Assembly: GCA_030295235.1 (NCBI GenBank) | Contig: AP026124.1 | Location: forward strand, 1,922,001-1,986,000 | DNA: 64,000 nt | Direction: 5' to 3' | From: Fistulifera solaris | Taxonomy: Eukaryota | Shown here: piece by piece, positions 25,960 through 33,455 of the stretch | Numbering within the stretch: the stretch's first letter is position 1 | Layout of the letters: each line of letters starts with the position of its first letter | The notes under the pieces: model-generated | Database searches by the model: none | What the model was told of the DNA's origin: nothing | Seen by the model: only the letters and a program-made list of their open reading frames with translations | Position numbers and translations under genes: made by a program

Positions 25960-26684
25960 ATGTTCCTGTTAGACTGGTGGTACAGCGCTCTGGCGAGCTT
26001 GGGTAAGTCCTACCCTGCAATGACTGTCAAACGGGGTTTAGCGACACAATGAGGCGCGTTTGTAGAGGATACATTAGCTGAGAATACCAATGAGAAGGAA
26101 AGCAATTTCTTGTGTGTTTTATCTAACAACGGTGCTTACTTGGCGCAGGTCTTTACCACAAAAATGCCAAAATTTTGTTTCTAGGGCTAGATAACGCCGG
26201 AAAGACAACCTTGTTGCACATGCTCAAGGAGAATCGTGTGCAGGTGCATCAACCCACGTTACACCCCAACACGGATGAGTTGATTATCGGAAACATCAAA
26301 TTTAAGACTTTTGATTTGGGTGGACACGAGACAGCTCGTCGATTGTGGCAAGATTACTTCACGACCGTCGACGGGGTCGTCTACTTGGTCGACTCGATTG
26401 ACCGTGAGCGTTTTCCAGAGGCCAAGGCCGAGCTAGACGCTCTTCTCACCAGTGAGGAGTTGCAAGATGTACCTTTCCTTGTTTTGGGTAATAAGATTGA
26501 CGTCCCTACTGCGGCCTCTGAGGAAGAACTTAAATATGCGTTAGGATTGATGGATACTTACGGAAAGGATAAGGGACCTGACGCAAACGGAACGGTTCGT
26601 CCTATTGAACTCTACATGTGCTCTGTGTTGCGAAAAATGGGCTATGCAGATGGATTCAAGTGGCTGTCTCAGTTCTTGAGTTAG
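25960..26684 (+). CDS. SAR1: Small GTPase SAR1 (COPII)
   Basis: Exon 1 25960..26002 ([14 protein letters not shown]), intron 26003..26148, then [28 protein letters not shown]. Confidence 0.96.
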
Positions 26685-26861: not shown

Positions 26862-29800
26862 TTATCGTCGTCTCGACCCTTGCGTAGTTGCCATTTTTTC
26901 GTTCTTGTTGGTGCACGAAAGTGTCACCATGTCGAACCGATCGTCAACTTTGCTGTAAAGGAGAATTGTGACGAGTGCAGAGCTTTCAAAGTTGGACTGG
27001 TCGGATCCAGGACCATGGCCCCACAGTCCGTGACGTCGCATGAAATTGTCAATGGCAAGTCCAAGGGTTTTCAAAGATCGCTTGTGCTTGGCCCCGTGAC
27101 GCTCTATTATTTCATTACAAGCACCTACAGCAGATTGTTCTTTTCGTTCCCGTCGCATCAGCGCAGTCCCAAAGTCACGAAGTACCCAAAAGGACACGTC
27201 AGCAAGAGCAAAGACGGGGATAGTTGGTACCCCCATCGCCGCAAGTCTTGATGAATCTTGCATGCCCTTGATAAAAGACTCCGCTGACAACGCGATGGTT
27301 TTCATTATTTTCAAGCAAGATTTTGGTGTTTCGGTTTTGGAGATCTCTCTCAACTCCGTAATATGTATCATTGTCAATGTAGATACATTTTACGGAGGCT
27401 GTTTGGATTGGACGAGTTCGTGATTCGCGACTTTTGTATGGTGTAAAATTCAAAGCAGTATCTTCCGGGCTATCACTATTCATCACCGCACCGAGGATAA
27501 GTGGCGCCAGTTCGTCGAGAGCCACCAATCGTTCATTTATGTTATTTGCTTGGCCAGGGTCTATTGTGACCTGTCTGAGCCTTACCGAACCCTTGTCTCG
27601 GAGGAGATGCGGTTGAACGACAACTATGAAAGGTATTTTCAGTAAAGCGCATACTCCATGTAACTCGGTCAATGACCAGTCACTTTCGCCGCTATCTTCA
27701 GAGCTACTGCCAACCCGCCGAACGAGACTAAGCATAACAGAGCTTTGAGAAAGATACTCTGCAGAAACGCTTTCAGCCCAAAGCCGGGCTGCTACGATGG
27801 CTCGCTCGTGTTGGCCACCTGAATCTGTCAATGGACTTGGTAAGTTGTACACAGCGCTTCGTTGAGTCTGAATGGCAAACAAACATACCTAATCCATGTA
27901 CACTTGCTACGACACAGTGGACAGATCTCGAAAAATTGAGCGGATGACCAAGACTTCGTCTAAGCAAGTCGAAATTTTGATTGTCTGCATCACCGTTCCT
28001 ATTTTCGTTGCTAGATTGATTTCCATCTTGTCTCCCAAGCATTGTTGCATCAATGTAAATGAATTCAACAAATTTCCCAACGAAAAAACGAACACCAACA
28101 CACACAGGGATGGGAGCAGACGTGTAGTGAGATACCGTGCCGGATGCAAAGTTTCCAGGGGGGCGGAAGCGCCTGACTAAATCTGAGTAATGTCCTCCTT
28201 CAGCCACTCGAGTGCCGAGATTGTCATGGTGTTCTTCTGGATCGCATGGAGATGAAAAGTAGTTTTCGGGCAAAATTATCGCTTGGAATATAGACCCACC
28301 GTGATAATACTTTCTCCGTTGCCTCAATCCCAGGTCGAAAGCAATAAACAGTGGGCGGCGAATTGACGAATGGCCGCCTTCAGCCTTCTTCCGAATAAAA
28401 GTGGACCAATGTGCATTTTTTCCAGCGATTCCACGAGATTTTTCACGCTTTTTAAACTCTTGGCCGCGTCTTCGAAGCGTTTCAATCGTTTTGGGTCGGC
28501 AACTTTCGGTTCAATTTTTCGTAGTTCAGACAGACCCTGTTTGAGCATTTCAATGCTAGTGTTGATATCGAGATGGAAAGGAACGCATTTGGACACAAAC
28601 GTAAGGAATCTGTCGGCGCTAGTCTTTGGCATCCCTTGTCGCTTGACAAGTTCGTCAAGCGTGGAGGAGATTCGCTCGATTCGATTTCTCCTTTCGTCCT
28701 GCTTTTCAATGTGGGTGAGCAACAAGAGCCTCGGAGTGGGGGATGTGAATTTCGTAAGAATGTGCAAACAGGATCGTCGAATGTTATCTTTCAAGGGAAT
28801 CTGGCACAAATCCAGAATGCAGTCCGCAAGCCTTGTGTGATTAAGTCGAAGATACCATGGTATCGGAGCTTCCGGCTCCTTATCAATTGGTACGGTAGTG
28901 ATGCGGTACGACGGAAGAAAAGCAATTGCTTGAGCAATGACCATAATGACCTCTGACTCCAAAAGGTCACTATCGATGTTTTCATGAATTATGTCAAAAG
29001 ACGCTTCGAGCGACTCTCGAGGATGACCACCAGCAATTGATTTATGATAGACGCGGTCAATATCGTAGCGTTTTAGATTACTAGTTGCCGAACCACCACG
29101 ACTCACGGCACGAGCTGTAGACACCGGCATGAGGTCCAAAATAACAAGAAATCGAAACAGCACAATCGACGTACCAAAAGAAACAGTCAGGTCTTCCGGC
29201 AAAGATAGAACGGCACCTCTGCTATTCAATACCTCAGCTGGGCCTCCAGTTGAATTGATTCCGGAAGAATGATTTGCTCGGGGGCGAAGCAAGGGATTTT
29301 GGAGACGCGAGGCCCCGTGCATATGAAAGACCGCTTTCAGCTTTTCGCATACCGTTTCAACTACAAATGGGTCGGATCCTAATACTCCGTCTATAGTACC
29401 AGCAATCGCAGCCGACGTAGCGGCACGCATCGAAAAAAATCCCAGCTGTCCGTTGAGTAGAGCGTTTCATGCCACTGTCACGTCAGGTCAAGAGTGAGCA
29501 ACCAAATCATGGACAACTAGACCTGTCGGTGAATCTGCACTTACATTCCTTTTCCGAAGCCGCCAACTTTGCCGGCTTGTCTTGAGCGTTTTAACTTGGG
29601 GAACATGAGTGGATGGATAGTTGATGCATTATGCATTTATCAATATCTTACCGAGTATGTGGCCGCCAAGAAGGAGCACGGATTCATGGCAAGCGTACGA
29701 AGCGATGCAATTTCAACCGCACCCATCCGAATATCGCTGATGGCCCGCATTAGATCTTCTGTTAGGTCTGTACGTGTACTAGCTTGAACTGCAACATCTG

Positions 29801-32800
29801 TGTCGAACGTCTTTAAATATGTCAGTATACTCAATGATGGAAAAGGAAAGGCAATAGATCAAACTTACGGCATCGACAACATCGGCTTGATGCCTAGCGA
29901 AGAGAGCATCAATTATCTGTAGATAACTCTCGGACTTATACGATGAAAAAGTGTATCAGCTGTAGTCTCGAGTAACTCATCTTTTCGGTTTGATCTTATT
30001 TACCTGGGAAGTCGTTAGCAGTTCCAATGCCTCCTCGAGATATCTTCGTTCAAGCTCAATTTTTCTCGGAAGTAACTCACTTGCAAGTAAATCTTCAGCT
30101 AAGGTAGAGTCTGGATGAGAGAATATGCTCGGATCAAATGGCATCCATAGAGTTTGAACGTACCACTTGGCCTATTTTTCGGTTCTCTCTCCAGGCACCA
30201 CAGAATAATTCTGGAGAGTTTCGTTAGATAATGCAAAACATGCCACCAAGCCGAAACCTGTGACTTACCGCTGACACTGCTCAGTAGTTGAGGAAAGGAA
30301 AAGTGGGGAAAACGATCCTCTGCTAGTGCACGAAAATCCGAAGAGGCCATTGTCCGTGGGCTTCCACTTGAAAGTCGAGAAGCATGGTCACCACGGAGCT
30401 TTGTAAGAGTCTCGGCCCGTTCCATATAAGTCTGAAAAGGTGGATGGAACATCTCGAACAAAATGATGCCAAAGCTAAAAATGTCCGCCTGGACAGTGTA
30501 CGAAGCCTCTCCCTTACCGCTCGACAAAACGCGCTCTTGCTCAGCTAAAAGAGAGATGAGGAACTCGTGAGTTCATGGTAATCAAACGTAAATTTTTGTC
30601 AAATGATATTTGTACTCACGCTATGCGGCAATCGGTTAGATCATTCGAAGTGATACAGGTGGCTAGGAGAATAGACAGACTACTTACTGCACGATAAAAT
30701 GTTGTCCCCACCCCACTGGGGTTATCCAGAAATTGACATCAACACATGAGAAAGCAAAAGGCATAAACGCAATTACGAGTGATTGTCTTACCCCGTCATC
30801 GACTCCTCAATCGAAAAACCAGATGTCCCTCCAGATGGTACCATGGGATCACCAATGAGTCTTGATATGTCCTCAATATCATCATAGATATTGTCGCTAT
30901 CGAGTTGTTTTGATTCATCTCCACCGCCCTTATCGCGATGTTTCGTGGCGAGACCAAAATCACCCAAACGTATATTTTGGTCGTGATCAAGAAAAACGTT
31001 TCCTGGCTTTAGGTCACGATGAATGATGTTTTGTCCATGGATGTAAATAAGGGCCTCGAGCATTTGGCGCGCAAGTCTCCATACGCCGTTCTCTTCCATG
31101 CTAAGAACATCTCCATCATCGATCAATTTCCTCAAAGTAGTTGAGCAAAACTCCATCTGAATGTAGAGAATCGTTTGGCCATCACCAGCACCGACTTTTA
31201 CCGACGAGTGATCCCACCCTTCACTATCAGATTCGCTCCAATTCTTCTTCTTGCTCGTTTGATGGAGCAATGTGTCGTATGCATTGTTTTGAGAAAACCG
31301 AGTCCGCTTAGAAGCGGACTGTTAATGCCATGATCGATTTCATTCTCTAATAAATTCACCATAGAGTCAGAATGTTTGTCAAGTGCGCTTTTCTCCAGAC
31401 TCAGTTTTCTCTCCTGGGAATCTATACTGTTGTCACTCTCTAAGCCATCACTATCGTTTGATCTAGAACCCATGACCAATGGAGGCTTTCCCAGATGTCG
31501 CAACAGGTGATTCTCTACGGGAGAATTTGTCCACCAGCCGCTAGATGATCCATTGCTGCTGTCGTCGTCGCTCTCCTCCTCCGCGGATTTCACCGGCTCG
31601 CCCACAGTCTCTTCGGGGGTTGCTTTGCTACCTTCCATCCAAGCTTGATAGTAACGCACAATATGTTTGTGTGTCATCCGACTAATGGTCGTCACTTCGC
31701 GGCGTAGCTTTCGATTCTGCAATGCAGCATGATTCGCAAAACGACCACTTTCTGATTCCAAAATAATCTTTTTGATTGCATATATTCTTCGATCAAGTCT
31801 ATTGCGAACTTTCACAACTTCCCCGCCGCCCCCCTCGACCAAGAATACCAAGTTCAACAAAATCAGATTGATATCTAGATGCCGAAGGTGCAACGTAACC
31901 GTCATCATCGTCAAATTCAAGCTCATCCTCATCATCATAAACAACGACTTCCTCCTCGTTTGACGATATCGACATTGCCCGTTGCCCTCTCCGTTGCTTC
32001 AATGCTGCATCCAGTGCCTCTTTTGTCGTAACAATTCTTTTTCTACATCAGATGACACCAATGGCTTAGCAAACGAGACTTTGTTGGTCTTAGAGTTGCT
32101 TGGCGAAAAAGTCTCCATTGCATGGCGAGCAGTTTCATTCATCAAACGATTTATTTCTTCACGCTCCTTCTCTTCTTTTTCTTTCTCCAAAGCCTCTCTA
32201 GCTTTCATCTGTTCCCAAGCCGACATTGTTGGATCACGATTATGGAGAACTAAGAAATCTTCAGCTACCTGGACCAGTTCGATCATCATGACGGACCCCG
32301 TTTCTGCTAATTCGGTAGCTCGAGCCTGGAGCTGGGACATGAGCTCTGCTTGTTCTTCTTTTGATAAACCTTTGATATTTCGACATTCAATGGCAGGGGC
32401 GACGTAAGGGTATTGCTTGCCCAGCTGAATCGACAGACTAGAAACAAAAAGACGAAATCGTTTAGCGGCAAGTAAAAGTCGGACAAGATATAAAGACAGA
32501 CCAGTCTGCGTACCATATTTTGCAGCCAATTTGTGCAGCTGGAACATCAGGCGGACTGACGTCGACTTCCAACCGTTTACATCCCCAAACTCCTTCGACG
32601 CATCGGAATTCTTCCCCGTAAACCGCCTCGAGCACAGTGATTTCATCCGCTCGAGATACCGACAAATCTTCATGCGACGGGATATGTAAATTAGTTTTAC
32701 TCGTCGGACCAGGCATATGCACTGTCGATGACATGCCAGAACCGGAGACGATCTTCGAAGAAGACAATTGCGACGTTGGCTTTTGTAGATGCTCCTCGGT

Positions 32801-32866
32801 CGAATGACGACTCAAAGAATCATCATCAGTGTCGCTATCCTGCAGAACCCCGAAGAAGCCGGACAT
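26862..32866 (-). CDS. GCN2: eIF2-alpha kinase GCN2 (RWD, kinase, HisRS-like and anticodon-binding domains), many introns
   Basis: RWD (E...LEAVY, YPYVAP), [37 protein letters not shown], spliced [14 protein letters not shown], HisRS-like LPEDLTVSF and VAEGGHY. Introns include 32438..32513, 30716..30791, 30621..30687, 30545..30619, 30211..30268, 30099..30163, 29935..30003, 29811..29868, 29595..29651 and 29115..29174. Several homopolymer frameshifts. Confidence 0.93.
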
Positions 32867-33455
32867 GTTCGCTCTCCTCTCCAGATCAGCTTTTCATGCG
32901 TTGAAGAGTAGACTGGTTTTTATTTTGGATTTATTTTGGATCCTATCTAAAAACTTGAAGGTTATCAATAGTATTTCATTGACGACTTGGTGCTATGAAA
33001 AACGATAAGAACATGCTGTCTGTCATCTCGTCTTTCAAATCGCGACTGCGTGTCTTACAGCCGAAAGATTCAGTAATAGCGTCAAACCTCGAGTACCGGT
33101 AAGATCTTGGCCTCATTCACGCGACACGCGGAATAATTCGTCGACAAGAATTGCTTCCAACATTTTCTTTTCAAACAACAAGGTAATGCGATGATTCTCG
33201 ATCAATGAAGATGACAGATTGCTTGGATGATGTAATGATCTAGCAAGACAAAAGCTTAGGAACAACATTTGAGAATAATTGGAAGTGAACGAGAAGAAAC
33301 AACGCCGAAAATGAACTTAAGCCCGAGAGATACGACGCCTAAGCCCCACTTTTTGGAAGCAACGAACCTCCAGTGTTGATGCATACCGTGATGCGACTGT
33401 CAATACCTGGTTTTCAGCAATTGGTCTGCTGAAACTGCGCGAATTTCTCATCACT

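Follow-up and report, generated by a model that had tools for sequence, protein, structure and literature searches.

One-nucleotide exons have been documented in only a handful of genes, namely APC11 and VPS55 of land plants and CYP621A of Fusarium. The single-nucleotide exon of Arabidopsis APC11 was described as constitutive (Guo & Liu 2015, PMC4674806), and one-nucleotide microexons of APC11 and VPS55 were subsequently reported across land plants (Yu et al. 2022, PMC8831610). A one-nucleotide exon in 20-24 genes of the Fusarium P450 group CYP621A was presented in a report that calls itself the second example (Nelson & Syed 2026, PMC12940212). In this study, a comparable structure was analysed in a 64-kb stretch of DNA from the diatom Fistulifera solaris (the window; all coordinates are those of the whole stretch), which carries a GCN2-like gene on its minus strand. 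The C residue at position 30620 is, with a probability of roughly 85%, a genuine one-nucleotide exon of this diatom GCN2-type kinase gene. The preliminary description of the site, which was made from the letters of the window, had named APC11 as the one known precedent; this is out of date, since VPS55 (PMC8831610) and CYP621A (PMC12940212) have been described. A full-text literature search for single- or one-nucleotide exons gave, among the matches listed, a sole further case, which is mitochondrial and from placozoans, and a search for one-nucleotide exons in diatoms or stramenopiles, or for diatom microexons, found nothing relevant. As far as the literature was searched, the exon at 30620 would be the first one-nucleotide exon in a diatom or stramenopile, the phenomenon itself being known.

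On the minus strand, a 28-nucleotide (nt) micro-exon (30688..30715) contributes the final base of a Gly codon, followed by the codons for G-V-G-T-T-F-Y-R-A, and ends with TAT CGT GCA. It is followed by intron A (30621..30687; 67 nt), which has a GTAAGT donor, a CATAG acceptor and a CTAAC motif at 30639..30635, whose branch A is 15 nt away from the end of the intron. The single-nucleotide exon (30620..30620) then supplies the initial C of the Pro codon CCT in A-P-E. Intron B (30545..30619; 75 nt) has a GTGAGT donor, the branch-like motifs CTCAC and CTCAT 23 and 12 nt from its end, a pyrimidine tract, and the pyrimidine-rich acceptor ...TCTCTCTTTTAG (TTTTAG). The downstream kinase exon (30269..30544), which falls under the Pfam family Pkinase, starts with CT GAG CAA, so that it completes P and continues with E-Q-E-R-V. 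On re-reading of the minus strand, the coordinates and splice signals given in the preliminary description were all found to be exact.

The APC11 exon and C30620 have in common a length of one nucleotide, AG/GT flanks and a position inside an annotated intron; in both cases the base is present in cDNA and required for the reading frame, and the annotation is wrong (PMC4674806). On the other hand, the APC11 exon is an A residue of a land plant gene, located at 333 nt within a 422-nt interval, whereas the base in the diatom gene is a C residue between introns of 67 and 75 nt (PMC4674806). The APC11 exon was proven by base-substitution minigenes and genomic re-sequencing, whereas the present case is built on sequence comparison; in addition, the APC11 exon was not described as part of a catalytic motif, whereas C30620 lies in A-P-E (PMC4674806). 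The exons of APC11 and VPS55 resemble C30620 in their absence from reference annotations, in the adjoining donor of the type GTRAGT (GTGAGT here) and in the existence of intron-free relatives (PMC8831610). However, these plant exons are ancient and conserved across phyla, whereas the introns around C30620 are missing in two diatom loci (L001 and L002) of about 52% identity, and VPS55 has alternative forms that arise by intron retention (PMC8831610). The CYP621A exon is similar in that the apparent intron is roughly double the usual size (139 nt compared with a median of 56 nt; here 143 nt compared with a mean of 64 nt) and contains an internal AG-N-GT, and in that the base belongs to a conserved motif of fixed spacing for which intron-free homologues serve as a ruler (PMC12940212). 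In both cases, public run data confirm the joint and gene models failed at the structure (PMC12940212). In contrast to the diatom case, CYP621A is a fungal gene whose exonic G (AGGGT) fits both splice consensuses, while the C fits neither, and its exon is conserved in 20-24 orthologues, while AG-C-GT at this place is known from one assembly (PMC12940212).

Contigs of the sequencing runs X1 to X4 were compared with the window to examine the spliced product. X1, X3 and X4 are marked 'RNA?' as a guess, and no run is recorded as RNA. X1 was treated as DNA-like because its contigs cover introns, and X3 and X4 were treated as cDNA-like because their contigs skip introns. Record 27 of X4 is a 763-nt contig with a depth of 12.6, and it shows several intron-skipping joints that are collinear along the GCN2 gene. 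One of these joints leads from 30544 to 30688 and skips 143 nt, including intron A, with one letter between its two sides, G on the plus strand and C in the sense direction. The skipped 143 nt end with CT..AC on the plus strand, that is, GT..AG in the sense direction. A single nucleotide is thus found in mature RNA between two exons, with neither of which it is contiguous in the genomic DNA, in a copy about 90-92% alike to the window. Because this contig carries one extra C between 30688 and 30544, the mRNA reads R-A-P-E-Q. The GCA-C-CTGAG junction that had been predicted for the transcript was therefore recovered from that copy. The earlier assignment of C30620 to the A-P-E motif is borne out both by this spliced contig, which carries the C, and by the single-C acceptor of a further genomic sequence, P0150, which is described below.

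The same contig, together with homology to a full-length relative (P0003), defines the surrounding exons. The kinase-core exon (30792..31291, minus strand) contains HRDLKPGN and the DFG motif and has the 3' end ...ATG ACG GG; it is based on a Pfam Pkinase match (E 2.3e-20), on a tblastn match of P0003 with 88% identity over 31180..30791, and on the X4 joint at 30792. No intron was found upstream of this exon as far as 32424. A 76-nt intron (30716..30791, minus strand; GTAAGA...CCCCAG), which was called with the guidance of homology, precedes the 28-nt exon. The X4 joint from 30714 to 30792 has one variant letter between its sides, a synonymous GGT/GGA difference at 30715. The 28-nt exon itself matched P0003 residues 548-556 in tblastn with 100% identity, and it appears as a 27-nt piece between two joints in X4 record 27. 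The downstream kinase exon is represented in X4 by the piece 30271..30544, and the next intron occupies 30268..30211. Within the kinase activation segment, a stretch of 248 nt (30545-30791) accommodates three introns.

The requirement for the C was examined by means of motif spacing and reading frame. P0003, which is 87% identical in the kinase exon, reads through RAPEQ, and L001 and L002, two diatom-like metagenomic loci that share about 52% identity with P0003, have ...GGVGT..YRAPEQE in one uninterrupted exon. Among 149 proteins fetched, 103 matched a pattern that allowed 7-11 residues for the segment GT-x-x-Y-x-[A/S]-P-E, and the segment was exactly 9 residues long in 103/103. The other 46 of the 149 were unmatched, and these include P0001, P0002 and P0015, none of which extends to the motif. 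The frame was then read from 32424 to 28400 with six X1-supported indel corrections and with eight introns as well as introns A and B removed. When the C was included, 1,122 codons were open and 85.1% identical to P0003 residues 1-1125. When the C was left out, that is, when one 143-nt intron was removed, the first stop appeared at codon 626. About 560 codons downstream of the site thus stay open in a frame that is obtained only with the extra base. Two public gene models, P0001 (560 amino acids (aa), 96% identity) and P0002 (553 aa, 93%), both end with ...EESMTG, at 30792 of the window, and reading past this point into the 76-nt intron meets TAA. Judged from these sequences, the annotation of P0001 and P0002 has lost the 28-nt exon, the one-nucleotide exon and the rest of the gene.

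The lengths of the two introns were compared with those of other introns of the gene. Twelve intron candidates were called, and four of them (32164..31987, 31504..31427, 31388..31195 and 28356..28177) were dropped; their donors were GC or weak, no more than 15-17 of 23 residues matched, and they lay at or near frameshift errors of the window or diverged stretches. The eight remaining introns, derived by homology with P0003 and in 7/8 cases also seen as joints in X3 or X4, are taken as verified. They are 57-76 nt long (mean 64.1, standard deviation (sd) 7.0) and have donors of the GTAAGT/GTACGT type, and one of them has CTAAC 13 nt before its end, compared with 15 nt in intron A. Relative to these eight introns, lengths of 67, 75 and 143 nt correspond to z values of 0.4, 1.6 and 11.3, respectively. 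Two introns are therefore favoured over one, since 67 and 75 nt are typical and 143 nt is an outlier, and the earlier statement that both introns fit the local size range agrees with the verified 57-76 nt. An argument from length of this kind was also made for the 139-nt interval in Fusarium (PMC12940212).

The splice signals at the site are also rare. On the two strands of the window (128 kb), AG-C-GT[AG]AGT was counted a single time, at the 30620 site. AG-N-GT[AG]AGT occurs four times on both strands, which corresponds to 0.0044 expected per 141 positions. The chance of AG-C-GTRAGT inside 143 nt is about 0.001. Furthermore, C30620 (CATAG-C-GTGAGT) is the sole C within the 143 nt that has AG before it and GT after it. 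The AG/GT flanks, the branch-like site and the donor that a one-nucleotide exon requires are accordingly all present at 30620.

A competing explanation that has to be taken seriously is a missing base: the true genome would read TTTTAG|CCTGAG, the window would have dropped one C, a single 143-nt intron would suffice, and AG-C-GTGAGT would be coincidental. Indel errors clearly mark the window as draft sequence, and breaks of open reading frames (ORFs) elsewhere in it are to be distrusted. Compared with all X1 contig depth, it has indels of 1-2 nt at 29433, 29981, 30304, 31291-31292, 31829 and 32020. At least four of these six break the GCN2 frame as assembled, and the homologues and the spliced contigs, in which they are likewise 'corrected', side with X1; the 1-nt assembly error in the C run 30305..30308, for example, is recorded as '+G behind 30304' in X4 and throughout the X1 depth. 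However, five of the six errors are in homopolymers of at least four bases, of which the stretch has 80, and the sixth is in a TCTC repeat, whereas the context AG|CTG at the acceptor is neither a homopolymer nor a TCTC-like repeat. Among the indels listed there was none at 30544/5, a place covered by X1 and both X2 contigs, and none on the donor side at GCA|GT; joint X1 and X2 support for an indel at 30544/5, about 36, would have ranked among those listed. The acceptor is also crossed by P0150 (jgi), a 100-aa protein from a simple ORF call on a 13,237-nt genomic contig, which is 96% identical in the downstream exon. P0150 begins with V-LLISFLA-EQERV and ends with ...TTEQCQR; it starts eight codons inside intron B and passes the acceptor in the exon frame, as the window's own reading does. 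An extra C at the acceptor is incompatible with P0150, because a TAG stop would precede CCT, and with TAG|CCTGAG in the DNA the residue before E-Q would be P, not A as in P0150. P0150 and the window differ by substitutions, three of which lie within the eight intron codons, and the five-C run (FPPLF) is correct in P0150 but erroneous in the window; P0150 therefore represents an independent and more accurate genomic sequence. On the acceptor side, no base is missing at the exon boundary, and the single C is found in two independent genomic sequences. The dropped C that the preliminary description had named as a possible refutation is made unlikely by the P0150 ORF. Since, in addition, a 143-nt intron would lie 11 sd above the local mean and AG-C-GTRAGT would have arisen with a chance of about 0.001, the loss of a C from the assembly is very improbable.

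Slightly less far-fetched, yet improbable, is that the copies in the window and in P0150 are frameshifted null alleles and that the C-bearing transcript came from another copy, whose acceptor is conventional. Such an origin would be compatible with the likeness of only about 90-92% between the X4 contig and the window, with the prediction of the P0003 gene through the site, and with the presence of at least three to five different close copies. On the other hand, the corrected frame stays open for some 560 more codons with 85% identity to P0003, which is unexpected for a pseudogene and disfavours a dead allele. The single-C acceptor is common to two distinct copies, and null alleles would leave AG-C-GTGAGT, the branch motif and the two normal-sized halves unexplained. 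It could also be supposed that another conventional splice restores the frame. In-frame GT-AG pairs do exist: an intron 30692..30545 with the donor GTGCAG (148 nt) gives FY|PEQ, and donors after 30684 and 30681 give RAVTEQ and RAVSTEQ, respectively; the 30692 variant is open and 85.1% identical to P0003. The earlier claim that only the C keeps the transcript in frame consequently applies to the A-P-E motif, not to the reading frame in general. However, the X4 transcript contig uses none of these donors, and the segment would be 7, 10 or 11 residues long compared with 9 in 103/103 proteins. The donors GTGCAG, GTAGTC and GTCTGT are moreover far from GTAAGT/GTACGT, and the introns would be 136-148 nt long, so that a conventional splice of this kind is barely credible. 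Several observations weigh against a one-nucleotide exon at 30620. The assembly does hold indel errors, at six places compared with all X1 depth, and an X1-only insertion depth of about 17 at 30544/5 would rank just below the weakest indel listed. The internal AG-C-GT is known from one assembly only. P0003 is predicted straight through RAPEQ on a 14.7-kb contig, where a conventional or intron-free structure may apply. The transcript support consists of one contig from one run of guessed kind ('RNA?'), and this contig, X4 record 27, comes from a copy about 90-92% alike (an allele, a homeologue or a sister strain) and not from the allele of the window. The middle side of its joint is only 27 letters long at a min_likeness of 88. 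Finally, the C-including form is the only junction form seen, and contigs cannot show minor isoforms.

If C30620 is an exon, as we consider most probable, its splicing would involve two ordinary short spliceosomal introns of 67 and 75 nt that lie one base apart, each with its own donor, branch-like motif and acceptor. Introns A and B would each be recognised as a unit by intron definition, and exon-spanning contacts would not be needed. Removal of both would join GCA, C and CTGAG and yield R-A-P-E-Q with the invariant spacing. The two introns would presumably be removed sequentially, because the AG of intron A sits at positions -3/-2 of the donor of intron B, so that U1 binding and 3' splice-site recognition overlap. 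Removal of intron A first would be the more attractive order, as it would change the donor context from AGC|GTGAGT to CAC|GTGAGT, although either order would give the same product. The donor consensus is CAG|GTRAGT, and the context produced by removing intron A first gains two matches to it. In recursive splicing, long animal introns are removed stepwise by way of zero-length exons, which are called ratchet points. The arrangement at 30620 is similar in that a donor directly follows a 3' splice site and in that upstream removal would regenerate a better donor context, given the order proposed here. It is different in that one nucleotide is kept and both pieces are normal short introns, not very long ones.

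Inclusion of C30620 is most likely constitutive. The preliminary description had suggested that the exon acts as an on/off splicing switch; this gained no support, as the only junction form seen includes the C and the one-nucleotide exon of APC11 is described as constitutive (PMC4674806). Skipping of the C or retention of either flanking intron destroys the kinase frame, and from this comes the idea of a splicing gate, in which the efficiency or order of the two steps would set the level of active GCN2, the structure having arisen by two intron gains in an intron-gaining lineage. We regard this idea as improbable.

The identity of the gene was examined by domain searches. An RWD domain (PF05773, E 5.2e-9) is present in the ORF 31999..32811 and also in P0003 residues 3-58. 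The HRD, DFG and APE motifs of an active kinase are all found, since HRDLKPGN and DFGLA are in the window exon and APE is completed by C30620. The closest named proteins are those called 'eIF-2-alpha kinase GCN2' in raphid pennate diatoms. The post-kinase ORF 28324..29466 matches residues 1066-1217 of human GCN2 (PDB 8t7t_A; E 5e-8), a stretch which we take to be the HisRS-like part of the human protein; no Pfam HisRS family was detected in P0003 or in the ORF 28324..29466. No separate kinase-like domain that could represent a pseudokinase between RWD and kinase was detected by Pfam in P0003. The glycine-rich loop of P0003 is at about residue 215, which leaves a gap of about 150 residues after RWD, and this is too short for a second kinase fold before the active kinase. 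Only the RWD and kinase families were found in the other diatom orthologues. By its predicted domain content, the gene is a GCN2-type eIF2-alpha kinase of reduced diatom architecture. The assignment to GCN2 made in the preliminary description is upheld by the RWD and kinase domains and by the post-kinase match to human GCN2 8t7t.

Several forms of the gene were recognised in the contigs. X1 holds two forms over 28300-32900 (records 2, 5 and 7), of which one equals the window and the other is about 90% alike. X2, a wetland metagenome, holds two more forms that are 90-92% alike (records 9-16), and its records 13 and 14 span the site. P0001, P0002 and P0150 are likewise distinct from the forms of the window, X1 and X2. 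This diversity points to diverged alleles, homeologues or a complex of close species. At 32709-32815, contigs of X1 (depth 19.2) and X2 (depth 9.6) skip 105 nt. The skip is not an intron, because its ends are CA..CA; it probably reflects an indel that distinguishes the diverged copy, close to the 5' part of the gene.

DNA of close relatives across 30620 was also sought. A metagenome scan gave 40 loci, none of them from a close relative (best identity 53%), and the loci other than L001 and L002 were distant and apparently non-diatom GCN2 genes; a scan of genome contigs for close relatives across the same position gave no match. L001 and L002 lack all three introns of the 30545-30791 cluster, and the structure therefore looks young or specific to the lineage. 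L001 has an in-frame interruption with a stop at L001:3118-3936, between HRDLK and PGN, where the window has no intron. This interruption is presumably an intron, and the intron positions of diatom GCN2 genes appear to be poorly conserved. An origin by duplication or from introners was considered and rejected: introns A and B and the 76-nt intron are unlike each other (z 0.8-2.2) and unlike the rest of the window. It is possible that two introns were gained one base apart, or that a lost base was rescued by a cryptic AG-N-GT, as has been proposed for Fusarium (PMC12940212). Two separate introns are favoured, because both halves are of normal size. Outside the GCN2 gene, a 185-aa open frame lies just downstream on the opposite strand (26127-26684, plus strand), and we presume from its appearance that it encodes a small GTPase of the Sar1/Arf type.

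The truncation of the models P0001 and P0002 at this point means that the annotation of GCN2 in this diatom group is faulty. The structure also provides a rule by which more cases may be searched for: an out-of-phase gap within an invariant motif, where the apparent intron is about double the usual length. If one-nucleotide exons occur in a third and distant eukaryotic supergroup as well, the ability to splice an exon that has no exonic context would appear to be a general property of spliceosomes, at least for short introns that are recognised as units.

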